From: a virus
IMG/VR virus record: IMGVR_UViG_3300044811_000010
Coordinates: 1 to 64,000 of that record
DNA: 64,000 nt
Direction: 5' to 3' (one strand)
Shown here: piece after piece, positions 1,328 to 44,555 of the stretch
Layout of the letters: every line of letters begins with the position of its first letter
Position numbering within the stretch: the stretch's first letter is position 1
Notes under the pieces: generated by a model
The model's database searches: none
What the model saw: the letters and a program-made list of their open reading frames with translations, nothing else
What the model was told of the DNA's origin: nothing
Position numbers and translations under genes: made by a program

Positions 1328-1386
1328 GGGGATTACAGGCATCGACGCGCCTAGCGCGGACGTGGGTTCGACTCCCACAGTCTCCA
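1328..1386 (+). ncRNA. minimal tmRNA tRNA-like domain (no mRNA-like domain)
   Basis: 5' GGGGATTACAGGCATCGAC and 3' GGACGTGGGTTCGACTCCCACAGTCTCCA match the tmRNA termini (G3:U70, TCGAC, GGAC, T-arm); they are joined only by the hairpin GCGC-CTA-GCGC. Confidence 0.8.
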
Positions 1387-1762: not shown

Positions 1763-1835
1763 GGGGGTGTAGCTCTAACGGTAGAGCGCCTGCCTTGCAA
1801 GCAGAGGGTTGTGGGTTCGAATCCCATCTCCTCCA
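1763..1835 (+). tRNA. tRNA-Ala(TGC)
   Basis: cloverleaf, loop CT-TGC-AA, G3:U70. Confidence 0.95.
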
Positions 1836-1863
1836 CTTGGGGAGTCTTCGGGCTCCCCGCCAA

Positions 1864-1935
1864 GCGCCGCTAACTCAGCGGGAGAGTGCCACGGTGACAA
1901 CGTGGAAGTCGCAAGTTCGATTCTTGCGCGGCGCA
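1864..1935 (+). tRNA. tRNA-Val(GAC)
   Basis: cloverleaf, loop GT-GAC-AA. Confidence 0.95.
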
Positions 1936-1941
1936 CTTCAT

Positions 1942-2014
1942 GGCCCTGTAGCTCAGCGTGTAGAGCGTCCGGTTTACACCCGGCAGGTCGTAGGTTCGAA
2001 TCCTACCAGGGCCA
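1942..2014 (+). tRNA. tRNA-Val(TAC)
   Basis: cloverleaf, loop TT-TAC-AC. Confidence 0.95.
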
Positions 2015-2019
2015 CTCAT

Positions 2020-2096
2020 GGGACAGTATCCCCTCCGTCTGATAAGCGGTAGAAAGGGTAGCTGGTAACACGAGGGTTCAACTCCTTCCTGTCCCA
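2020..2096 (+). tRNA. atypical tRNA-Ile(GAT), D-loop displaced to the 3' side of the anticodon arm
   Basis: Acceptor GGGACAG/CTGTCCC+A; T-arm GAGGG-TTCAACT-CCTTC; anticodon CCGT-CTGATAA-GCGG starts 8 nt after the acceptor; D-loop-like AGCTGGTA lies after it. Confidence 0.75.
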
Positions 2097-2100
2097 CTCC

Positions 2101-2173
2101 GCAGCGGTAGCTCAATTGGTAGAGCACCACCTTGCCATGGTGGATGTCGCGAGTTCGAATCTCGTCCGCTGCT
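2101..2173 (+). tRNA. tRNA-Gly(GCC)
   Basis: cloverleaf, loop TT-GCC-AT, U73. Confidence 0.95.
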
Positions 2174-2176
2174 TAC

Positions 2177-2249
2177 GCCTCCGTAACTCAAATGGCTAGA
2201 GGCCCGGCTCTTACCCGGTGCGATGCGGGTTCGATTCCTGCCGGGGGTA
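2177..2249 (+). tRNA. tRNA-Lys(CTT)
   Basis: cloverleaf, loop CT-CTT-AC. Confidence 0.92.
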
Positions 2250-2253
2250 CTTC

Positions 2254-2326
2254 GCTCGCATGGCGCAAATGGCAGCGCACTCCCTTGGTATGGGAGAGGT
2301 TCTGAGTTCGAGTCTCAGTGTGAGCT
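2254..2326 (+). tRNA. tRNA-Thr(GGT)
   Basis: cloverleaf, loop TT-GGT-AT. Confidence 0.95.
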
Positions 2327-2369
2327 TCGGTGGGAAATGTCGGCCGTAAGGCTGGGCGCCCATCGGTAC

Positions 2370-2437
2370 GCCTCGCCATCAGGAGATGGCCTGTCCCTTG
2401 TAAGGACGGAGGCTGGGTTCGAGTCCCAGGCGAGGCT
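2370..2437 (+). tRNA. tRNA-Thr(TGT), compact D-arm
   Basis: GCCTCGC/GCGAGGC; D hairpin CATC-AGGA-GATG; loop CT-TGT-AA; 68 nt. Confidence 0.85.
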
Positions 2438-2441
2438 CTTC

Positions 2442-2508
2442 GCCGGACGATCAGGGATCAGCCGTCTTTCGTAAGGACGGCAGACGAGTTCGATTCTCGT
2501 GTTCGGCT
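2442..2508 (+). tRNA. tRNA-Thr(CGT), compact D-arm
   Basis: GCCGGAC/GTTCGGC; D hairpin GATC-AGG-GATC; 7-bp anticodon stem, loop TT-CGT-AA; 67 nt. Confidence 0.85.
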
Positions 2509-2511
2509 TAC

Positions 2512-2587
2512 GCAGGTGTGTTCACAACGGCATGATGCTGGCCTTCCAAGCCATGCGATGAGGGTTCGACTCCCTTCACCTGTTCCA
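2512..2587 (+). tRNA. tRNA-Gly(TCC)
   Basis: cloverleaf, loop CT-TCC-AA; followed by an encoded CCA. Confidence 0.92.
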
Positions 2588-2669
2588 AGGTTGTAGGTCA
2601 CCACGACCGCTGACTCCCGCGCGCATAAAGACGTAAGGCGCGGGGCGAGGACGGTGACTGCGTCTATGC

Positions 2670-2742
2670 GGCTTCGTAGCTCAGTCGGTAGAGCAGGCCC
2701 CTGAAAAGGGTCGTGTCGCAGGTTCGAATCCTGCCGAAGCCA
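2670..2742 (+). tRNA. tRNA-Phe(GAA)
   Basis: cloverleaf, loop CT-GAA-AA. Confidence 0.95.
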
Positions 2743-2746
2743 CTTC

Positions 2747-2786
2747 AACGCCCGCTAGAGAGGTCCGATCCCTCCTAGCGGGCGTT
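2747..2786. terminator. bidirectional hairpin terminator between tRNA cluster 1 and convergent ORFs
   Basis: AACGCCCGCTAG...CTAGCGGGCGTT inverted repeat. Confidence 0.65.
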
Positions 2787-2793
2787 CTGCGTT

Positions 2794-2994
2794 CTAGGGC
2801 TTGAGGAACGTGACGACGAGTCCGATGGTGTAAGGATCTCGTTGGTTGCCACCTTCCAGCGCTGAAGCAGACGACAGTGCGTAGCCAGCGTCTGCTGCAG
2901 CCTTCAGCTCGGCGACGAACGTCTCGGTGTCTGACAGAGACGCCGGGATTGGGGTCTTCACCGTCACGGTGTCCACGCGCTTGACCTCGATCAT
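2794..2994 (-). CDS. hypothetical protein
   Basis: ATG at 2994 overlaps the stop of the upstream ORF (ATGA coupling). Confidence 0.6.
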   Translation of the reverse strand: MIEVKRVDTVTVKTPIPASLSDTETFVAELKAAADAGYALSSASALEGGNQRDPYTIGLVVTFLKP

Positions 2995-3203
2995 CCGAGC
3001 ACCAGTACGCTGTTGGCGTTCTTGACCACCGAGACGTGGCCTAGATCGTTCTCGATCCTGATGCGATAGACGACGTGCCACTGGCTGACGCGCTTAGGCT
3101 CCCCAGGGTCGAGGACGACGCCGGGAACGACTTGGCCGCTCTGGTTGTAAGCAACCCTAGCGCCCCTCGTGATCTCAGTACCTCGGCTGTCGCAGACGAT
3201 CAT
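2991..3203 (-). CDS. hypothetical protein (small, SH3-like beta fold possible)
   Basis: ORF translationally coupled to both neighbours. Confidence 0.6.
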   Translation of the reverse strand: MIVCDSRGTEITRGARVAYNQSGQVVPGVVLDPGEPKRVSQWHVVYRIRIENDLGHVSVVKNANSVLVLG

Positions 3204-3946
3204 CGGGATTCACCGGCTGCCTTGGCTGCCGCCTTGCGGCCGGCGGCGTCATCGAGCTGCTCCTGCGTCGTCTCGGGGTAGACACCTAGGATCGCAGCGT
3301 CGAGCAGCAGCTTGAGGTTGACGGGGCGGTACTTCGTCTGCTCGACCGAGAGGTTGATGTGGTTGCGGACGAACGGAACGAAGGCGTCCCGGCTGTAGCC
3401 GTTGTTGTGGATGTGGCCGTGGACGCGGATGTGGTCGGCGGACATGGGCCCGTCCTCGGCGTCGTTCCATGCGTAGTGCGAGAAGCTGACTTGGTGCTGG
3501 CAGTCGGCCGGGTCGCCGAGTGGGTCGTCAAACCCGCGCACGCGCAGGTACGGCTCCTCTGCGTGGACTTCGAGGCCCAGCGCGAACGGCCGCACGACTT
3601 GGAAGCCTGACTTCTTGTAGAAGCTGTAGGGCTGCTTGTCGTGGTTGCCGATGATCAGCAGCTTACGGGCGCCGGTCAGCTCCTTGGCGATCAGGTGCTT
3701 GAAGCGGCCGTTGCCTCGGTAGCTGAGGTCGCCAAGGTGGAGCACCGTAGCGTCGTCAGGCACTTGGGCTCGCCATTCGGCGATCATCACTTGCTCGTGG
3801 TCTTCCGGCCTATGGCAGAAGCCGACGATGTTGTCGTGGCCGAAGTGCGTGTCGGAGACGATCCAAGTGTTCTCTGGGTCGATGTCGTCACGGAACTTCA
3901 TGGCCGGGCGCGATTCGGACGCGCTGCCGGTTCTAGAGTTGCTCAT
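3200..3946 (-). CDS. calcineurin-like metallophosphoesterase
   Basis: SDTHFGH, HLGD, GNHD and HGHIH motifs; leaderless TACGAT-N6-ATG. Confidence 0.9.
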   Translation of the reverse strand: MSNSRTGSASESRPAMKFRDDIDPENTWIVSDTHFGHDNIVGFCHRPEDHEQVMIAEWRAQVPDDATVLHLGDLSYRGNGRFKHLIAKELTGARKLLIIGNHDKQPYSFYKKSGFQVVRPFALGLEVHAEEPYLRVRGFDDPLGDPADCQHQVSFSHYAWNDAEDGPMSADHIRVHGHIHNNGYSRDAFVPFVRNHINLSVEQTKYRPVNLKLLLDAAILGVYPETTQEQLDDAAGRKAAAKAAGESR

Positions 3947-4067
3947 ACGAGAATCGTACCACTAACGGGCCTGATTAGCACGCTTTCGCGAGCGATTAGC
4001 ACGATCACCGGCCCGGAATCGAAGATAAAGTGGCGGTTAGAGGGTCTAACCGCAACTTTACTGGCAC

Positions 4068-4409
4068 TCAGAACCCGAGTTCGTCAAGGCTGGCGCGTGG
4101 GTCGGAATCTAGGACCACTTCTTCGCCGCTGCAGCCCCAAGGCTCGGCGCAGGGGACGTGATGTGGGCACGGACGGGCAACGCGCTTGTAGCCCTTCGGA
4201 ATGCTGCGCGCCCTAGGAGGCGTCGGCTTGTCGATGAACACGCCGAACTCCTTGAAGCAGTCGGCGCAGAGGTCGTACTTGCGATCCGGGTACAGCCCAG
4301 GGTCCTGCTGACGGCCGTTTGCCTTCAGGCCGGGCACGTCGATGGTGCGGCGACCGCTGCGGATTTCCCTACCGCAGCGGTCGCACTCGATGATGTTCCT
4401 GACGCCCAT
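4068..4409 (-). CDS. zinc-finger hypothetical protein
   Basis: CDRC...DLCADC plus further Cys/His residues. Confidence 0.65.
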   Translation of the reverse strand: MGVRNIIECDRCGREIRSGRRTIDVPGLKANGRQQDPGLYPDRKYDLCADCFKEFGVFIDKPTPPRARSIPKGYKRVARPCPHHVPCAEPWGCSGEEVVLDSDPRASLDELGF

Positions 4410-5812
4410 CAGAGCGCCGCCCTCTCACGGATCTGGTCGAACGTCTGCTCGTTGACGAGCTGGCCGTCCTTGAACACCGTCTGCAGCGCGTCGCACTCGT
4501 CGTTGTCGAGCCACACGCCTTCCCTGTCCGTGTGGAAGGTGTTGTGCTGCAGGTTCTGGATCAGTGTCAAGCGGCCCTTCTTCGACGCCTTGGTGGAGTC
4601 CAAGGGCTTCTTGTACACGTCGTGCCACTCGCCGTCGCGTTGCTGAGCGCTGCTCTTGAACGCGAAGCGGCAGGTGTCGCGGTTGAGGCGCTGCAGGAGG
4701 CCTCCGCCCATCCCGAACACGAGGTTCTCGGGGCTGAACCCCTGCAACATAGCGCGGTTGACGATCTTCTCGATGCCATGCTCGTCAATCCCGTCGCCCC
4801 ACAGCAGCCGGACGTGCGGGTCGAGGACCCTGAATCCCTTAGGCGTCTGGGTTCCGCCGTAGTAGCTCCACAGCCGCTCCAAGAGCGCCGAGGTCAGGAG
4901 CTGCGGAGTCGGATGGTCGCGCGTGACCGAGTCCGGCCGCACGACGAACACGCCGTCGCGCGAGAGGATGCGGTCCTTGAACGTCGTCCCGACCCGATCC
5001 ACGAACTCGTAGATGTCGTAGGAGTCCGCGACGACGCTGAGGATGCCGCCGGGGTGGTTGTCGAGAAGCCGCGACGTGATCGCGGCCTCTCCATCACGGC
5101 CGAGCGAGGTCATGACCGAGTGCTCGGTCGCCGGAACGCTGAACGCCAGCGTGTTGGGGTCAGCGCCATAGTCACGGATTGCCAGAAGCAGCGCCGGCAG
5201 CGTGTCAGCGCCAACGAAGCTCGTCAAATGGCCCGCCACGGCAATCGCGGCGGCCTCATGGCCCGCTGCACCCCGGTATCCGAAGTCGTGGAGCATGAAT
5301 TGAAGCCCATCGAGGCCCGATCCGGCCGCAGTGAGGCGTTCGGCGAGCATTCGCTTGACCGAGCGGCTCCTAGTGGCAACCGTCGTCGGGTACCAGACGT
5401 GCATGAGCAGCGATTCGAGCGCGTTGGTGAGCCAGAACGCATCGGGGTCGGTGTTCTCGACCGCCATCAGCACGTTCCCGACCGGGACAACGGACCCCTC
5501 GGGCACGGCCTTGATGTGCAGCGGCAGACGCCCTCCATGCCGGTCGATGATCGTCTCCCAGCCCTTGTAGTTGAAGACCGAAGCGTCCCCGAAGTGGACC
5601 CGAGCCAGCTCGAAGGCTTCACTGAGGTTCTCGTAGGTCACGCGAGGGATGGTCTTCAGGATGGACTGCAGGCCGAAGAACACCGTCTCGTCGTACTCCG
5701 AACCCTGACGGGCTTCGAGGTAGCTGTAGACGCCGGTCGTGTTGGCCGGGTACTGATTCCAGTGGCCCAGCTTGTAACTGTCGGTTGCGAGGATCGGATT
5801 GTCGAGCATCAT
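4409..5812 (-). CDS. nadV: nicotinamide phosphoribosyltransferase (NAMPT)
   Basis: TDSYKLGH, LHDFGYRG, PATEHS, SVVADSYD, VVRPDS, WGDGI and FGMGGGLLQ motifs. Confidence 0.95.
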   Translation of the reverse strand: MMLDNPILATDSYKLGHWNQYPANTTGVYSYLEARQGSEYDETVFFGLQSILKTIPRVTYENLSEAFELARVHFGDASVFNYKGWETIIDRHGGRLPLHIKAVPEGSVVPVGNVLMAVENTDPDAFWLTNALESLLMHVWYPTTVATRSRSVKRMLAERLTAAGSGLDGLQFMLHDFGYRGAAGHEAAAIAVAGHLTSFVGADTLPALLLAIRDYGADPNTLAFSVPATEHSVMTSLGRDGEAAITSRLLDNHPGGILSVVADSYDIYEFVDRVGTTFKDRILSRDGVFVVRPDSVTRDHPTPQLLTSALLERLWSYYGGTQTPKGFRVLDPHVRLLWGDGIDEHGIEKIVNRAMLQGFSPENLVFGMGGGLLQRLNRDTCRFAFKSSAQQRDGEWHDVYKKPLDSTKASKKGRLTLIQNLQHNTFHTDREGVWLDNDECDALQTVFKDGQLVNEQTFDQIRERAAL

Positions 5813-5814
5813 GG

Positions 5815-6885
5815 CTACGACTCCTTTCGATTGAGGTAGTCCACCAGCATCCCCATCAGCGGACGGTGCTCGGGGACAAGGTTGTTGTAGAACTGCTCTC
5901 GGGAGACTGGGTTGCCGAGTTCCTTCCCGTACTTCACGTCAGGCAGGTCAATCCACTTGACCTCTTCGATGTCGTCGCCCGGCGTGGGGCGGCCGTGGGT
6001 GTACTGCGCCGTGAACAGCATCGTCTTGATGCAGTCCGGCTCGTTGCGGTAGCGCCAGTCATCGACTCGAAGCGACCCGACGTAGCGCACATCCTCGACG
6101 TTCAGGCTCGTCTCTTCCTGAACCTCACGCTTGGCGTCGGCCTCGAAGCTGTCGGAGCGCGGGTCGGAGAAACCGCCAATGAAGCGATAGAGCGTCTCGT
6201 TTGGCTTGCGGCCGAGCAGAAGCTGCAAGGGCTTCTCCGTCGCATAGAAGGCTGCGGCCTCGTCTCGATGCACCGGACACGCAGTCCGTGGCTGGCAGCT
6301 TCGACAGTCGATCCACGACTGCGAAGCCTTGCGCTCGCGCGAGGGAACGTCCTTGAGAATCGCCACGTCTACCGTCGTGTAGGCGGTCGGGAAGCGGGCC
6401 TGCGACGCCCAGATGACGCCGGCACGGAACTCGGGGCTGGACTTAGCCCGGCTGCGGGCGATGTCCTTGCGCTGCGCGCGGCCGGAGTAGAACGTGGTCT
6501 GCGTCAGCTCCTGCGTCGGGTGGTTGCCCGTGTAGTGGCTGATGAAGGAGTCGCGGCCGCCGTAGAGGACGACGCTCTGGCCGGGAGCGACGAGGTTGGC
6601 GATGTTGTCGTCAAGAACGTGCGACCACGCGCGGTCGTTGTTCAAGTCCTTGACGTACAGGACGTTGGCCTCGGGGAACTCCGCGAGGATCATCTGCTTG
6701 CGCGCCTCGAAGTCGAGCGGATTGTTCGTGGAGACGGAAAGCGGCGAAAGGCCGAGGAAGATGATGACCTTGTCGTGCCGGTCGCAGACGTACTTGATCA
6801 GCTCCCTATGAGCGTTGTGCAGCTCATGGACCTGGAATCGCCCTACCAGTACCCCTACGTCGTACTGCTTCTCTGTTGGCTGCAT
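5815..6885 (-). CDS. nadM: bifunctional NMN adenylyltransferase / Nudix ADP-ribose pyrophosphatase
   Basis: GRFQVHELHNAH (HxGH-like), NPL, Nudix box GG..REVQEET; SD GAAGGAGG before ATG 6885. Confidence 0.9.
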   Translation of the reverse strand: MQPTEKQYDVGVLVGRFQVHELHNAHRELIKYVCDRHDKVIIFLGLSPLSVSTNNPLDFEARKQMILAEFPEANVLYVKDLNNDRAWSHVLDDNIANLVAPGQSVVLYGGRDSFISHYTGNHPTQELTQTTFYSGRAQRKDIARSRAKSSPEFRAGVIWASQARFPTAYTTVDVAILKDVPSRERKASQSWIDCRSCQPRTACPVHRDEAAAFYATEKPLQLLLGRKPNETLYRFIGGFSDPRSDSFEADAKREVQEETSLNVEDVRYVGSLRVDDWRYRNEPDCIKTMLFTAQYTHGRPTPGDDIEEVKWIDLPDVKYGKELGNPVSREQFYNNLVPEHRPLMGMLVDYLNRKES

Positions 6886-6986
6886 CAGGCGCAAACCTCC
6901 TTCTATGTCCGGGCCGCGCATCGGTGCGACGGCTCTACGAGAACCGTACCACAGGGCGGCGACGAGCGCAAGGGTAGAGTGGGAGG

Positions 6987-7391
6987 GTGGCTTTTCTCCG
7001 AGTAGTCAGAAAGAACTGGGTAGTGATTCTACTTCTGTTCGCCATCGTCTCGTCCTTCTTGGCGTCGATGCAGCAGACGCGCGCCGACACGGCTCAAGTT
7101 CGATCCAAGGCAATCGCCCTCTGCACCATCGACAACCAACGCGCCGTGCTGGTCATCACCTTCAAGTTCTCGGTGGCGAGGGCGGCGGACAAGCGCGGCG
7201 AGCACGCGGCGGCTGCTCACTTCCGGGCTCTTGGAGATAGTGGGCTGGCGTTGATCCCACTTGCCCCGGAAGATCAAGCCGAGCGAGCCCACCTAGCCGA
7301 TGTCATTCCGCAGGGAGGGCACTTCGTGCTGCCGCAGAAGGCGAAGGACGCGATCCGCGCGGGATGCGTGGATTCCTACCGCGCCAACTAG
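6987..7391 (+). CDS. membrane-anchored hypothetical protein
   Basis: N-terminal hydrophobic helix; TAGAGT-N6-GTG. Confidence 0.6.
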   Translation: MAFLRVVRKNWVVILLLFAIVSSFLASMQQTRADTAQVRSKAIALCTIDNQRAVLVITFKFSVARAADKRGEHAAAAHFRALGDSGLALIPLAPEDQAERAHLADVIPQGGHFVLPQKAKDAIRAGCVDSYRAN

Positions 7392-7421
7392 GTCAGAGAA
7401 GCGTGCTATAGTCCCTGACGC

Positions 7422-7499
7422 GCTGCCGCGCATAGGCGAGCAAGGCCGGCTGTAACCCGGCGTCCTCTGGACTTGCAGGTTCGACTCCTGACGGCAGCA
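7422..7499 (+). tRNA. tRNA-Tyr(GTA)
   Basis: loop CT-GTA-AC, long variable arm, reduced D-stem. Confidence 0.88.
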
Positions 7500-7503
7500 C
7501 TTC

Positions 7504-7587
7504 GGAAGGCTCCGCTTGGTGGCAGGCAACTCGGTTCGAACCCGAGGGCGGCGTTTCTCGTTGGGGGTTCGACTCCTCAGCCTTCCG
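7504..7587 (+). tRNA. tRNA-Ser(CGA), 8/4 fold
   Basis: 8-bp acceptor GGAAGGCT/AGCCTTCC, 4-bp T-stem, loop TT-CGA-AC, G73. Confidence 0.85.
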
Positions 7588-7591
7588 CTTC

Positions 7592-7663
7592 GTCGTAGTG
7601 CTGGGAGTGGCGACCAGCCGGGCTGCAACCCCGAGAACGTCGGTTCGAATCCGACCTACGACT
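7592..7663 (+). tRNA. tRNA-Cys(GCA)
   Basis: loop CT-GCA-AC, U73. Confidence 0.92.
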
Positions 7664-7666
7664 TAC

Positions 7667-7753
7667 GGAGAGGACCCGGCTGGATCAGGAGCTTGCCCGC
7701 TAAGCAAGTAGCGCGTCCTAGATGTGTTCGGGGTTCGAGTCCCCGTCTCTCCG
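7667..7753 (+). tRNA. tRNA-Ser(GCT)
   Basis: loop CC-GCT-AA, long variable arm, G73. Confidence 0.9.
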
Positions 7754-7758
7754 CTCAC

Positions 7759-7844
7759 GGAGAGGACCCGGCTGGATCAGGAGCATCCCTGGAAAGGATG
7801 TGCGGCGGTCACGCGTCTTCAGGGTTCGAGTCCCTGTCTCTCCG
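7759..7844 (+). tRNA. tRNA-Ser(GGA)
   Basis: loop CT-GGA-AA, long variable arm, G73. Confidence 0.92.
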
Positions 7845-8031
7845 CTTGATCGCTCCAACGGCTGCCCCGAGTAGCGCGACGATCATCACCAGTGCCGCAA
7901 GTGCCGCCACTACGACAGCCGCGTAGATGACGATGAAGGGCAGCAGGATCCCCGCGACGAGCGCGATTCCGGTGCCCAAGCAGCCTCCGTCAGACATCAG
8001 CCGCAGCAGACTCCACTGCAGGCGCCGCAGC

Positions 8032-9564
8032 TCACGCGAGCGCCTCGGCCCGCGTGAGCTGCCACTCCCGCGACATCGTCTGCTCGGTGGGCTGGCAGAC
8101 GACATCGTCCAGCACGGCGTTGAGGATCTCGCCGATCTTGCGGCCGTCCGCGCCGATGGCGCGCACGTCATGGCCGTTGATCTTCAGGTCCCTCGGAGAC
8201 GTGGGGACGTTGTCCTTCTCCGCCTCACGGCGCAGCAGTTCCATCCGGCTGATCTGCTCGATGTGACCCTTGTTGGGCTTGCCCTTGCCAGTCAGGTCGC
8301 ACATGCGGTGCAGGAACAGGTCGGCCAGCAGCTCGTCCCCGAACTGCACACGCATCCGGCGGACCTTCGAGCCCTTGAGCTTGCCGTCGACGGTGACCAT
8401 GTGATTGCGAATGAGCAGGCGCACGTCCTCGCGCAGACCGTTGCCTGCGTTCAGGCGCCGAGCGGTCTTGTTCCAGATGCGGGCGCCCGCAACCTCGTGG
8501 TCCTCCGTGGCGACCATCATCGGCGCGCCGCTAGCGACAGAGCGGGACGCGGTCCCGTCCTGAGCGTAGTAGTGCTTGCGTCCGTCCTTCCCAATCCACG
8601 CCGTCTCAGGCTTGCCCGCGTCGTGGAACAGCAGGGCCATGCGGACGCGCAGCGGCGCGTCGACGTGCGTAGCCGTCGTCAGAGCAGCGAACGTGTGCTC
8701 GTCGGTGGTCAGGTCGTGGTAGCGCGAGCCCTGATCGAAGCCGATCATCGGAGCCAGCTCAGGCAGCAGTGTGGCGAGAACGCCAGTGTCGAGCGCCAGC
8801 CTCAGCGCCTTGACCGGCTCGTCGCCCATCAGCAGCTTGCACAGCTCTTCCAGCACGGTTCCGGACGCGTAGCCATTGGCGCTCAGGCCGTTTACAGCGT
8901 CAGCGTGCTCACGCATCTGGTCGAGCGTGTTGCTCGACAGGTCGTAGCCAAGCGTCGAAACGAAGCGCAGAGCACGCAGCGTGCGCAGCGGGTCGTCGCG
9001 GAACGAATCCGGGTGAGTGGTGCGGATGATCTTATGGCTCAGGTCGTACAGGCCGCAGTTCGTCGGGTCCACGACGTTCTCGACCAGTGCCCCGCCCGAC
9101 ATGGTGGTCAACGAAGACATGCCGGCAGTCGGATCCACGATCTTGTAGAGAGCGTTGAACGTGAAGTCACGGCGCACGGCGTCTTCGTCCAGCCGCAGGT
9201 TCGGGTCAACCACGATGTCAAACGCGCGATGCACGTTCTCGCCGGGGGCGGGCGCGCGAGGGCGCTCCGTGCGCGGCAGGACGACTTCGATCAGACCCAT
9301 GCCGCGCGCGGCGACCCGCCATCCGGCCTGCCGACCATCGCGCAGCACCAGCGGGGAAACGACGTTGGACTTGTTCGCGGGGTCGTACCGAATCGCGGCG
9401 TCCTTGAGCGCAATGCCCAGCTTCGCCAGTCCGACGCCTCGGATCATGTAGTCAGCGTCCTTGACCTTGCGGCCGATCAGTTCGTCTCGAACGGAGCCGC
9501 CGACGCGGTAGGCTTCGAAGCCCAGGCCGGCGATGAAAGTGTCTGTCCGCTCGATGTACGCCAT
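8032..9564 (-). CDS. cca: CCA-adding tRNA nucleotidyltransferase with HD domain
   Basis: VGGSVRD, DAD, RRDFTFNAL, FRDDPLRTLRALRF and LLFHDAGK motifs; leaderless TACGTT-N6-ATG at 9564. Confidence 0.93.
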   Translation of the reverse strand: MAYIERTDTFIAGLGFEAYRVGGSVRDELIGRKVKDADYMIRGVGLAKLGIALKDAAIRYDPANKSNVVSPLVLRDGRQAGWRVAARGMGLIEVVLPRTERPRAPAPGENVHRAFDIVVDPNLRLDEDAVRRDFTFNALYKIVDPTAGMSSLTTMSGGALVENVVDPTNCGLYDLSHKIIRTTHPDSFRDDPLRTLRALRFVSTLGYDLSSNTLDQMREHADAVNGLSANGYASGTVLEELCKLLMGDEPVKALRLALDTGVLATLLPELAPMIGFDQGSRYHDLTTDEHTFAALTTATHVDAPLRVRMALLFHDAGKPETAWIGKDGRKHYYAQDGTASRSVASGAPMMVATEDHEVAGARIWNKTARRLNAGNGLREDVRLLIRNHMVTVDGKLKGSKVRRMRVQFGDELLADLFLHRMCDLTGKGKPNKGHIEQISRMELLRREAEKDNVPTSPRDLKINGHDVRAIGADGRKIGEILNAVLDDVVCQPTEQTMSREWQLTRAEALA

Positions 9565-9603
9565 GGGAGAAACGTACCACATTGGGCTTCCGGGCGCAAG
9601 TTC

Positions 9604-9632
9604 TTGCACATGTCACGAAGATGTGCTAGAGT
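9604..9632 (+). promoter_or_regulatory. promoter of tRNA cluster 3 (divergent from cca)
   Basis: TTGCAC-N17-TAGAGT with TG extension. Confidence 0.75.
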
Positions 9633-9685
9633 CCCATCTCTGGTCAGCGCTCCGTCGGCGACGGCGGGTAGCGGGGCCAGGACAC

Positions 9686-9757
9686 TGAGGAGTAGTGTAA
9701 TGGCAGCACCGGAGTCCTTGAAACTTCGTAGTGCGGGTTCGAGTCCCGCCTCCTCAT
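9686..9757 (+). tRNA. tRNA-Gln(TTG)
   Basis: cloverleaf, loop CC-TTG-AA. Confidence 0.9.
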
Positions 9758-9761
9758 TCAC

Positions 9762-9833
9762 TGCGGAATGGTGTAACGGCAGCATGGCGGGTTCTGAGCC
9801 CGTTCGATCTAGGTTCGAATCCTAGTTCCGCAG
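9762..9833 (+). tRNA. tRNA-Gln(CTG)
   Basis: cloverleaf, loop TT-CTG-AG. Confidence 0.93.
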
Positions 9834-9838
9834 CTCAC

Positions 9839-9909
9839 TGGCGTGTAGCTCAAGGGCAGAGCCTCCGGTTGTTACCCGGCGGATGAGGGTTCGAATCCTT
9901 CCATGCCAG
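9839..9909 (+). tRNA. tRNA-Asn(GTT)
   Basis: cloverleaf, loop TT-GTT-AC, G73. Confidence 0.93.
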
Positions 9910-9914
9910 CTCAT

Positions 9915-9988
9915 CAGCGTGTGGCGCAGTCTGGTAGCGCTCTTTTCTGGGGAAAATGAGGTCGCAGGTTCAAATCCTGCCACGCTGA
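9915..9988 (+). tRNA. tRNA-Pro(GGG)
   Basis: cloverleaf, C1-G72, loop CT-GGG-GA. Confidence 0.88.
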
Positions 9989-9994
9989 CTTCTC

Positions 9995-10067
9995 GCAGCC
10001 ATGGTCTAGTGGTCATGATGCCGGCCTTTCAAGCCGGACGACGAGGGTTCGAATCCCTCTGGCTGTA
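9995..10067 (+). tRNA. tRNA-Glu(TTC)
   Basis: cloverleaf, loop CT-TTC-AA. Confidence 0.93.
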
Positions 10068-10071
10068 CTAC

Positions 10072-10144
10072 GGCGCGTTGGGGTAACGGTTAGCCTCTCA
10101 GCTTCTCAAGCTGCTGGATACGAGTTCGAATCTCGTACGCGCTA
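10072..10144 (+). tRNA. tRNA-Glu(CTC)
   Basis: cloverleaf, loop TT-CTC-AA. Confidence 0.92.
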
Positions 10145-10149
10145 CTCAT

Positions 10150-10221
10150 CGGGATCAAGTGTTTATGGCTGCACCGGCCCCTCGGACGGGTCAAGACGGA
10201 GTTCGAATCTCCGGTTCCCGA
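10150..10221 (+). tRNA. tRNA-Pro(CGG)
   Basis: cloverleaf, loop CT-CGG-AC. Confidence 0.88.
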
Positions 10222-10225
10222 CTTC

Positions 10226-10308
10226 GCTCCCGTGGTGGAATGGTAGACGCGCTAGGTCGAGAGCCTAGTGCCCTAACGGGCGTGCAGGTTCAAGTCCTGC
10301 CGGGAGCA
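10226..10308 (+). tRNA. tRNA-Leu(GAG)
   Basis: long variable arm, loop TC-GAG-AG. Confidence 0.92.
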
Positions 10309-10314
10309 CTGCAT

Positions 10315-10399
10315 ACCAGCGTGGTGAAATTTGGTAGACGCAGCAGGTTCAGAACCTGCCGGCCGCAAGGTCTTGAGGGTTCAAGTCCCTCCGCTGGTA
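10315..10399 (+). tRNA. tRNA-Leu(CAG)
   Basis: long variable arm, loop TT-CAG-AA. Confidence 0.93.
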
Positions 10400-10403
10400 C
10401 TAC

Positions 10404-10488
10404 GCAAGAGTGGCGAAATGGGTAAACGCTCCGGGCTCAAACCCCGGCGAGGTCATTCCTCTTGAGGGTTCGATTCCCTCCTCTTGTA
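10404..10488 (+). tRNA. tRNA-Leu(CAA)
   Basis: long variable arm, loop CT-CAA-AC. Confidence 0.93.
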
Positions 10489-10492
10489 CTAC

Positions 10493-10566
10493 GTCTCCTT
10501 AGCTCAGCAGGATAGAGCGCTGGTCCGCGAAGCCAGAGGCCGCAGGTTCGAATCCTGCAGGGGACG
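10493..10566 (+). tRNA. tRNA-Arg(GCG)
   Basis: cloverleaf, A20, loop CC-GCG-AA. Confidence 0.9.
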
Positions 10567-10570
10567 CTCC

Positions 10571-10644
10571 GGTGATGTAACTCAGTCGGATAGAGTGGCG
10601 GCTTGTCAAGCCGTTGGTCGCGGGTTCGAGTCCCGTCATCACCG
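10571..10644 (+). tRNA. tRNA-Asp(GTC)
   Basis: cloverleaf, loop TT-GTC-AA, G73. Confidence 0.95.
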
Positions 10645-10648
10645 CTTC

Positions 10649-10721
10649 GCCTCCGTAACTCAGCGGACAGAGTGCTTGGCCTCGAACCAAGTGGTCGCGG
10701 GTTCAAATCCTGCCGGGGGCG
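10649..10721 (+). tRNA. tRNA-Arg(TCG)
   Basis: cloverleaf, A20, loop CC-TCG-AA. Confidence 0.9.
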
Positions 10722-10727
10722 CTACAC

Positions 10728-10802
10728 GGTGAATGTAGACTAATCGGTCAAGTCCCTTGGTTGTGAACCAAGCCGATGCGGGTTCGAGTCCCGTCGTTCA
10801 CC
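10728..10802 (+). tRNA. tRNA-His(GTG)
   Basis: G-1:C73 pair, loop TT-GTG-AA. Confidence 0.93.
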
Positions 10803-10807
10803 CTCTC

Positions 10808-10876
10808 GGGTCATAGGTCATGGCGACCAAGCAGGTTCCAACCCTGCAGGACAGCGTTCGATTCGTTGATGACCCG
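10808..10876 (+). tRNA. tRNA-Trp(CCA), compact D-arm
   Basis: loop TT-CCA-AC, G73, 69 nt. Confidence 0.87.
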
Positions 10877-10880
10877 CTTC

Positions 10881-10947
10881 GGCTCTCTGAAGGTACGACA
10901 CGGTCCCTCATAAGGACGGTGGACAGGTTCGAGTCCTGTGGGAGCTA
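10881..10947 (+). tRNA. tRNA-Met/Ile2(CAT), essentially D-armless
   Basis: GGCTCTC/GGGAGCT+A, loop CT-CAT-AA, intact T-arm, no D-stem; 67 nt. Confidence 0.78.
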
Positions 10948-10951
10948 CTTC

Positions 10952-11020
10952 GCCCTTGAAGTTGGATACGCGACGGCCCTCCTAAGGCTTGCGCAGCGAG
11001 TTCGATTCTCGCCGGGGGCT
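10952..11020 (+). tRNA. tRNA-Arg(CCT), reduced D-arm
   Basis: loop CT-CCT-AA, intact T-arm; 69 nt. Confidence 0.8.
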
Positions 11021-11021
11021 T

Positions 11022-11092
11022 CGCAGATAGGTGGTCTGGTGACCATTCGGGCCTCATAAGCCTGAGAGCAGGGTTCGACTCCCGGTCTGCTA
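11022..11092 (+). tRNA. tRNA-fMet-like (CAT)
   Basis: C1:U72 mismatch, A73, loop CT-CAT-AA, G-rich anticodon stem. Confidence 0.78.
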
Positions 11093-11146
11093 CTTGTGGT
11101 ACGATTCACCCTCGGCTGGCGGCTCGGGGGAGACGGTCGAATCCTT

Positions 11147-43611: not shown

Positions 43612-44172
43612 TCAGGATCGCCTAAGTCGGCCAAGGAGCGTCCGAGTGGAGCGCTTCTCGGCCCGTCGCGTCCGAAGCCACTCGTTGATGAGGTCCGCAG
43701 ACCAGCCGCGCTGTAGCCAATGCTTGATCTGGCTTAGCTCCTCGGGAGTCAGGTGGTCCGTCTCGATGATCGTCGGCCTGTCGCGGTAGAGATCCAGCGA
43801 GCTGAAGGTCGCGGCGACGTGGGGGCTGTCCTTGTCCACGATCTCGATGCCGAGCGCGGTGGGGACGATGGAGGCAACTTCGGTGTGCCCCTCATCCAAG
43901 ATCAGAGCGGTCTTGAACCCGCGTCCGTTGAGGTATCGCTCGATGTCGAGCAGGTGCTCCCGGTCGCGCGCCTCCATGACCAGTTTCATGTAGTGGCCGC
44001 CCTTGTACCACTGGTTGACGAGGCCCGTCTCGATCAGGTGCCCGAAGCCTTCCTCGCCGTGTCGGCAGGAGATTCGGTACGCCTCGACCGCCGCGTGGCT
44101 GGCCTGAGCGGCCGCCTTGCCGGTCGACATGCCGAGCCCCTTGTTGAGCACGATGTACATTGCTGGCCTCAT
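43612..44172 (-). CDS. pth2: peptidyl-tRNA hydrolase, Pth2 family
   Basis: MYIV...L.MS.GK.AAQ.SHA, KLV and I.D.G.TEV....TALGI motifs. Confidence 0.88.
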   Translation of the reverse strand: MRPAMYIVLNKGLGMSTGKAAAQASHAAVEAYRISCRHGEEGFGHLIETGLVNQWYKGGHYMKLVMEARDREHLLDIERYLNGRGFKTALILDEGHTEVASIVPTALGIEIVDKDSPHVAATFSSLDLYRDRPTIIETDHLTPEELSQIKHWLQRGWSADLINEWLRTRRAEKRSTRTLLGRLRRS

Positions 44173-44555
44173 GGCCGCCTCGCCTCGCAGAACTGGGTCC
44201 AGTATTGGCCGACGCAGACGCCGAAGAAGAACACCCAGCCGCTGCCCCAATCGTACGCCATCGCCAAGGTGGCTAGCGCTACAGAGATTGACAGCAAGGC
44301 CGCTGTTGCCCAGCGCTGAGTGCGTCGAGACATCAGTCGGGCCATCCTGGACCGCAGGTGACCCGCACGCGATGCGGGCACATTACATTCATGCAGGTCG
44401 TCCCCAGAGGGCACCCGCATTGAGGCATCAGCAGCCCGCCGGGGAGGGGCTCGTAGGGTCCTCGCTCAGCCTCACGAACGAACCTCTCCATAATCTCTGA
44501 CAAGCTCTCTCCTTCGCAGGCGAGCCGCACGTCGTCAGCGAACTCCAAGAGTTCC

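Follow-up and report, generated by a model that had tools for sequence, protein, structure and literature searches.

Introduction

In trans-translation, the stemless D-loop with its UCGAC and the GGAC junction of tmRNA form the surface that is read by SmpB, and the pair G3:U70 together with the discriminator A73 makes up the AlaRS identity set. In organelles, a template-less tmRNA is the organelle's sole tmRNA, works with imported SmpB and is permuted in many cases. Such RNAs of jakobid mitochondria and Mallomonadaceae plastids consist of the tRNA-like domain (TLD) only, and the plastid forms are about 65 bp long (PMC11915505). Among phages, mycobacteriophage DS6A has been listed with a 'TLD only' tmRNA (Hudson, Lau & Williams 2014, PMC4131195; tmRNA Website tmID 11587). 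According to a passage in that paper, a DS6A-like TLD molecule strongly inhibits tmRNA irrespective of whether it can be charged, perhaps by SmpB titration (PMC4131195, citing Mao et al. 2009). A 2025 database paper likewise has a passage on inhibition of endogenous tmRNA by the DS6A form in E. coli (PMC11915505, citing Mao et al. 2009), and it counts nine 'standard, no CDS' tmRNA sequences. The published record comprises one phage TLD-only tmRNA, that of DS6A, and these nine sequences overall, and full-text literature searches returned no paper describing a family of phage mini-tmRNAs.

Here we describe a TLD-only tmRNA homologue of 59 nt (hereafter mini-tmRNA) from an uncultured soil phage. 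A phage tmRNA of this kind has already been published for DS6A, and what is new is the unusually small copy. The organellar template-less tmRNAs are likewise TLD-only and of similar size, but the mini-tmRNA is an additional copy that a virus brings into a cell already equipped with a full tmRNA. The original prediction for this locus cited jakobid mitochondria as its only mRNA-less precedent and missed the phage precedent DS6A. Full-length phage tmRNAs, such as those of the Streptomyces BE cluster (e.g. Mildred21) and the mycobacteriophage Bxz1 group, resemble the mini-tmRNA in lying among phage tRNA genes, in large actinophages, but they keep a tag frame (e.g. ANSKFAFALAA) and are about 267 nt or longer.

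The covariance model R1, built on the short class of the family described below, locates the DS6A element at JN698994 28478-28557 (+), with a length of 80 nt and a score of 47.9 bits. Like the mini-tmRNA, it is a phage-encoded TLD only, with G3:U70 and A73 and with neither tag frame nor pseudoknots, and in the R1 alignment its motifs resemble those of tmRNA, with GUCGAC in the D-loop and GGCAC before the T arm. It differs in its longer inner stem, with an inner insert of about 19 nt that is absent from the R1 alignment, whereas the 59-nt RNA described here has a stub of 4-5 bp and a 3-nt loop. Moreover, DS6A is a temperate 60-kb phage in which the copy is isolated among protein genes, whereas the present copy heads a 28-tRNA array and lies in tandem with an alanine-acceptor tRNA mimic and an RNase P-like RNA. 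The GenBank record JN698994 carries no annotation for the DS6A element, which is situated between gp33 and gp34.

Results

Source record and layout of the locus

The IMG/VR record IMGVR_UViG_3300044811_000010 comprises 80,254 bases with a G+C content of 64% and a CheckV completeness of 66%; its first 64 kb were analysed and are referred to as the window. The capsid protein is less than 30% identical to that of any cultured phage, with no close cultured relative found, and blastn of positions 1150-1800 against INPHARED phages gave no match. ARAGORN called 29 tRNA-type genes in the window. Three small RNA genes, all on the plus strand, lie upstream of the first tRNA array: an anticodon-less Ala-acceptor tRNA mimic recognized by sequence and fold (1252-1325), the mini-tmRNA (1328-1386, 59 nt without CCA) and a reduced RNase P RNA-like gene found with Rfam RF00010 (1391-1681). 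A 3' trailer, CUGC (1387-1390), follows the mini-tmRNA and doubles as the spacer to the RNase P-like RNA. The first tRNA array itself (1763-2743, +; ARAGORN, Rfam) contains nine ARAGORN-called genes, of which tRNA-Ala(UGC) is the first, and this array and the three small RNAs probably form one transcription unit. Two NAD salvage genes, encoding NAMPT and a NUDIX-domain protein, were also observed between the tRNA arrays (4409-6921, -).

Structure and identity of the 59-nt element

The element begins with the acceptor 5' strand GGGGAUU (1328-1334), followed by the stemless D-loop ACAGGCAUCGAC, which contains GG and ends in UCGAC (1335-1346). The next segment is the hairpin GCGC-CUA-GCGC (1347-1357), made up of the P2a stub (1347-1350/1354-1357) and a CUA loop (1351-1353), after which come GGAC (1358-1361), the T arm GUGGG-UUCGACU-CCCAC (1362-1378), the acceptor 3' strand AGUCUCC, forming G3:U70 and U6:G67 (1379-1385), and the discriminator A73 (1386). 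As originally predicted, both tmRNA termini are intact, with G3:U70 and A73, and all elements were found in place. The minimum free energy (MFE) fold consists of exactly the three helices of this layout; its z-score of -1.84 is unremarkable alone and was not taken as evidence for structure.

The Rfam tmRNA model RF00023 aligned to the element end to end, over model positions 1-374, with 314 inner positions deleted. The score was 42.7 bits (E 1.2e-15) in a cmscan of the region, which falls below the gathering score of 47 bits, and 51.3 bits in a whole-record search, which lies above it; E-values ranged from about 1e-15 to 1e-20 across searches. Nearly all highly conserved TLD positions at both ends of the model are matched. 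The sequence, the fold and Rfam agree on a 7-bp acceptor stem with G3:U70 and A73, and the fold and Rfam on a T arm with a 5-bp stem and a 7-nt UUCRA-type loop. In the Rfam consensus, the C of GAC pairs with a G of GGAC beside tandem G.A pairs, and the inner helix of the mini-tmRNA in this structure contains five Watson-Crick and two G.A pairs capped by a 3-nt loop. The insert had been predicted as a 4-bp hairpin; GCGC-CUA-GCGC is indeed present, but the helix is not confined to 4 bp. R1 scored the element at 57.1 bits (E 3e-11), and the next best scores in the window were those of tRNA-Ala (24 bits) and the upstream mimic (23.4 bits).

The TLD is complete and in the standard, non-permuted order; it encloses a short inner stem-loop and lacks a CDS. 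No tag reading frame, resume codon or pseudoknot was found at 1328-1386, where the gap between UCGAC and GGAC is 11 nt. Compared with bacterial tmRNA (ssrA, RF00023), which has a homologous TLD and to whose model both ends align, the mini-tmRNA lacks helix 2 beyond the stub, the pseudoknots, the resume codon and the tag frame, and it cannot template a tag. The 21-mer of GGAC and T arm is identical in many bacterial phyla among the matches listed, and in a GTDB scan with the 29-mer of T arm and acceptor the matches listed were tmRNAs of many phyla, which gives no host inference. Among the computational checks suggested with the original prediction, the cmsearch-type comparison with the Rfam model returned a tmRNA match, but ARAGORN made no tmRNA or tRNA call at 1328-1386.

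Several other identities were considered and rejected. The element is not a tRNA (RF00005): it has no D stem and no anticodon loop, and its best clan match is tmRNA. It is not one half of a permuted two-piece tmRNA, since one 7-bp acceptor stem closes within the mimic and another within the mini-tmRNA. An antisense ORF at 1109-1489 (126 aa, GC3 0.73) is not a gene, since no ORF is conserved over the element; the ORFs over the orthologue in the related locus L197 (see below) have another frame and length, and their products are Arg/Pro-rich. Judged from its sequence, the stretch 1328-1386 is a tmRNA homologue that has been reduced to the TLD and has kept the alanine identity elements. The predicted TLD-only tmRNA without a tag frame is backed by the Rfam match as well as by the covariation and the conserved orthologues described below.

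A family of mini-tmRNAs in IMG/VR

IMG/VR was searched with a pattern that required UCGAC and GGAC, separated by 4-34 nt, and then a T arm. At least 120 loci matched this broad pattern, so that the phage search for the same terminal motifs with a short insert, suggested with the original prediction, yielded a family; a narrower short-insert pattern matched 59 loci. Filtering for a perfect 7-bp acceptor stem and a 5-bp T stem gave at least 146 copies with at least 98 distinct sequences. Among the matches listed there were two size classes, one of 59-67 nt (29 distinct sequences) and one of 73-82 nt (69 distinct sequences), and the copy in the window is, at 59 nt, the shortest of the clean copies listed, with the shortest P2a stub seen. 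The GGG start, G3:U70 and A73, none of which was required by pattern or filter, were present in 98/98 distinct clean copies among the matches listed. UCGAC and GGAC were invariant in the 29 short-class sequences, the search pattern itself having demanded both.

Covariation was counted on an R1-fitted alignment of 36 distinct sequences, mostly of the short class; fitting favours structure, but the margin was large. In this alignment 97.3% of the cells were paired, compared with 54-61% when the partners were slid, double-sided changes occurred in 12 of the 17 pairs, and none of 500 shuffles reached the observed covariation score. Covarying positions were the acceptor pairs 5-7, all five inner-stem pairs and three T-stem pairs, the T-stem cells being 100% paired in the family alignment. 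In contrast, acceptor pairs 1-2 are constant; pair 3 appears as G:U in 32 of the 36 rows and is unpaired in the other four. That G3:U70 and A73 are invariant while acceptor pairs 5-7 are free to change speaks for selection acting on alanylation. These comparisons indicate that the mini form is maintained by selection and is common in uncultured phages.

In the long class (IMG/VR loci L009-L128, 73-82 nt), a motif of UAA, UAG or UGA followed by a purine and CC, typically UAAAGCC, was seen in 38 of the 69 distinct copies, with about six expected from shuffles, and it sits at the 5' side of small inner hairpins, for example CCGCACGCGG. The idea that this inner loop presents a stop codon was rejected, as stop triplets were no commoner (54/69) than in shuffles (48); what is conserved is the UAA-purine-CC sequence motif. 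In addition, TLD-like elements of 48-49 nt were observed in four loci (L055 3929-3977, L093 3941-3989, L103 and L121). They have no inner hairpin and carry a U3.U70 mismatch, and in the two that were searched, those of L055 and L093, R1 scored 40-43 bits; these elements may be still smaller relatives or decayed copies.

Relatives with a mini-tmRNA at the syntenic place

Single-protein searches of IMG/VR with ORF 914-1231 and with the CCA-adding enzyme returned no relatives of the phage. The CCA enzyme has hundreds of homologues at 55-72% identity, the two closest being 72% and 65% identical, and an alignment of 33 of them led to 56 IMG/VR loci; it was only in this way that relatives were found. 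In the locus L197, whose CCA enzyme is 56% identical, a mimic, a UC spacer, a 60-nt mini-tmRNA (R1 62.2 bits) and an RNase P-like RNA follow one another; as in the window, the CCA gene lies on the other strand. The mini-tmRNA of L197 retains the D-loop ACAGGC, UCGAC, GGAC and G3:U70 and differs from that of the window by compensatory changes in all three stems. In L195 (CCA enzyme 58% identical) a syntenic 80-nt mini-tmRNA scored 61.5 bits with RF00023, over the gathering score, with an RNase P-like RNA directly after it. The presence of 60-nt and 80-nt forms in place in two related phages, with compensatory stem changes, implies that the mini-tmRNA is not a one-off deletion.

The locus L196 (IMGVR_UViG_3300018432_000021; CCA enzyme 58% identical) has the same tRNA arrays, but the cassette is missing upstream of its tRNA-Ala, and no mini-tmRNA and no RNase P-like match was found in the 10 kb covered, suggesting that the small-RNA cassette is gained or lost as a unit. 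No mini-tmRNA was found in the stretches covered of L198-L202 (CCA enzyme 40-47% identical). The mini form is conserved, but with the patchy distribution that an accessory gene would be expected to show. A full-length tmRNA at this place in relatives would have spoken against the original prediction, and none was found in the loci of the eight relatives.

The neighbouring small RNAs

The mimic at 1252-1325 is 74 nt long and ends 2 nt upstream of the mini-tmRNA. It has its own 7-bp acceptor stem with G3:U70 and A73 and a normal T arm, and is miscalled by ARAGORN as a 97-nt tRNA-Pro. The corresponding mimic in L197 (15964-15889, -; R1 28.8 bits) is followed by the same UC spacer and retains GGAC together with a variant, CGUC, of the D-loop motif. 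By these likenesses, the mimic looks like a diverged duplicate of the mini-tmRNA. A pattern for the junction of mimic and mini-tmRNA had no match in metagenome contigs, and a looser version matched, in IMG/VR, one unrelated low-GC phage whose mini form is 71 nt long.

The RNase P-like RNA aligned to RF00010 over model positions 1-367 with 32.4 bits (E 9e-9 to 2e-8), below the gathering score. Its P4 strands GAGGAAGGUC and ACAGAACCUCGCC show compensatory changes and a bulged U, and its blocks are conserved in L197 (about 15826-15500, -) and in L195 (about 15070-14740, -). Patterns based on RNase P P4 matched no metagenome contig, and their 13 matches in IMG/VR all fell by chance in unrelated sequence. 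L197 keeps the tandem order of mimic, mini-tmRNA and RNase P-like RNA, in which 2 nt and about 4 nt separate the neighbours, and this conservation makes coupled processing of the three likely. Of the 28 other short-class loci examined, 24 lack both a nearby tRNA call and an RNase P context, indicating that the function of the family cannot depend on that context.

ARAGORN also reported permuted tmRNAs in L197 (15498-15979, -) and in L163 (1776-2507, -). In the L197 call the tag is placed inside the RNase P-like RNA, and the tag peptides of the permuted calls are long; both calls are most likely artefacts of tandem tRNA-like units.

Maturation and protein partners

Among the 28 ordinary tRNA genes (1763-11093), at most one encodes CCA, and in 23 of the 28 ARAGORN tRNA calls the last base is C and the following one T, consistent with a CU trailer. 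In the mini-tmRNA, A73 is followed by CUG, a 3' context shared with the phage tRNAs. As CCA is not encoded, it must be added after transcription. A gene for a tRNA nucleotidyltransferase of the CCA-adding enzyme family, recognized by its Pfam PolyA_pol head and RNA-binding domains and by the names of its homologues, lies between the tRNA arrays (8032-9609, -), and this phage enzyme is the likely source of the CCA ends on the mini-tmRNA and the phage tRNAs alike.

SmpB was found neither in the phage record nor in any of 32 other mini-tmRNA carrier records, and the phage record encodes no ArfB/RF-1 and no bacterial Pth; the mini-tmRNA must therefore rely on host proteins as its partners. The window contains a gene for a PTH2-domain protein at 43612-44250 (-; 70.4 bits), 42 kb from the mini-tmRNA and on the other strand. 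PTH2 was absent from all 32 other mini-tmRNA-bearing virus records, 14 of which are at least 90% complete.

Discussion

We consider, with a probability of roughly 0.55, that the mini-tmRNA is a functional phage gene for a TLD-only tmRNA homologue that would act as a charged, SmpB-bound competitor blocking tagging, and that it probably interferes with host tagging of unfinished proteins. In the proposed sequence of events, the RNA would be transcribed together with the neighbouring small RNAs and tRNAs, RNase P would cut its 5' end, the 3' end would be trimmed, and the phage or a host enzyme would add CCA. Host AlaRS could then charge it with alanine by way of G3:U70 and A73, and host SmpB would bind through the stemless D-loop and the UCGAC/GGAC junction, with EF-Tu binding too. 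The charged RNA would compete with host tmRNA for SmpB and stalled ribosomes, and, as it has no template, the ssrA degradation tag would not be added; a nascent chain passed to it would end untagged and be resolved by host factors.

A tentative second reading, to which we give a low probability, is that the mini-tmRNA serves as a minimal rescue RNA which, charged with alanine and escorted by SmpB and EF-Tu, would take the nascent chain and let the ribosome be recycled untagged. The ribosomes concerned would be those stalled on broken mRNAs, for example after the action of host defence nucleases. If this were true, the phage would turn host quality control into tag-free recycling, and a functional tmRNA could be as small as 59 nt.

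The original prediction had offered an SmpB decoy as one of two functions, and that part has a published experimental precedent. In its pure form, the decoy would titrate free SmpB and never enter the ribosome, with charging irrelevant. According to the passage on DS6A-like RNA cited above, a TLD-like molecule inhibits tmRNA chargeable or not, perhaps by titrating SmpB, so that ribosome entry is not required for inhibition (PMC4131195). A sponge, however, would need neither G3:U70 nor A73, both of which occur in all 98 distinct copies listed while neighbouring acceptor pairs covary, and we regard this form of the idea as unlikely. A competitor that would enter ribosomes is favoured over a mere SmpB sponge because charging seems to be under selection, although the published inhibition did not need charging.

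The second function offered was a rescue RNA whose peptide is released by phage Pth2. On this account, the Ala-mini-tmRNA would take the chain productively, the phage PTH2-domain protein would hydrolyse the peptidyl-mini-tmRNA, ribosomes would be recycled and the proteins would escape proteolysis. The invariant alanine identity, which suggests that charging matters, and the presence of a PTH2-domain gene fit such a scheme, but the gene's distance and opposite strand and its absence from the 32 other carriers, which means that PTH2 is not the general partner of the family, leave the hand-off to Pth2 unsupported. Furthermore, no ArfB/RF-1 or bacterial Pth is encoded, and a template-less peptidyl-RNA has no known exit from the ribosome, which makes this route, too, an unlikely one.

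It is improbable that the RNA is an alanine-acceptor mimic unrelated to SmpB, for instance one that donates alanine or acts as a decoy against a tRNA-targeting defence enzyme. A second Ala-acceptor mimic, which has no tmRNA motifs, does lie directly upstream, but the motifs conserved in the mini-tmRNA are exactly those that separate tmRNA from tRNA-Ala. Much the same holds for a role as a processing handle, in which a tRNA-like cleavage signal (RNase P, 3' processing) would define the ends of the RNase P-like RNA 2-5 nt downstream. The mimic/mini-tmRNA/RNase P-like order with its few-nucleotide spacers in L197, and the position of the mini-tmRNA directly before the RNase P-like RNA in L195 as well, would agree with a handle, but any tRNA would serve this purpose, yet UCGAC/GGAC and the alanine identity are conserved, and 24 of the 28 other short-class loci have no tRNA call or RNase P context; we consider it a poor candidate. 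Finally, a functionless, decaying remnant of a full phage tmRNA left by a one-off internal deletion is largely refuted: the 3' end of the mini-tmRNA is 87% identical over 32 nt to that of the full tmRNAs of Streptomyces BE-cluster phages, but this segment is generic to tmRNAs of many phyla, and mini forms with compensatory changes persist at this place in diverged relatives, whose CCA enzymes are 56-58% identical, alongside strong covariation in the family.

The finding bears on how small a tmRNA can become: in the TLD-only form, an acceptor stem, D-loop, 5-bp stub and T arm can be all that remains. Annotation pipelines overlook or miscall such genes, and artefactual permuted-tmRNA calls of the kind seen in L197 and L163 could enter annotations. 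The invariant alanine identity suggests that charging of the mini-tmRNA matters and, if so, the simple view of such an RNA as an SmpB sponge would change. The mini-tmRNA gene is also a compact natural reagent for what the TLD alone does on a stalled ribosome.
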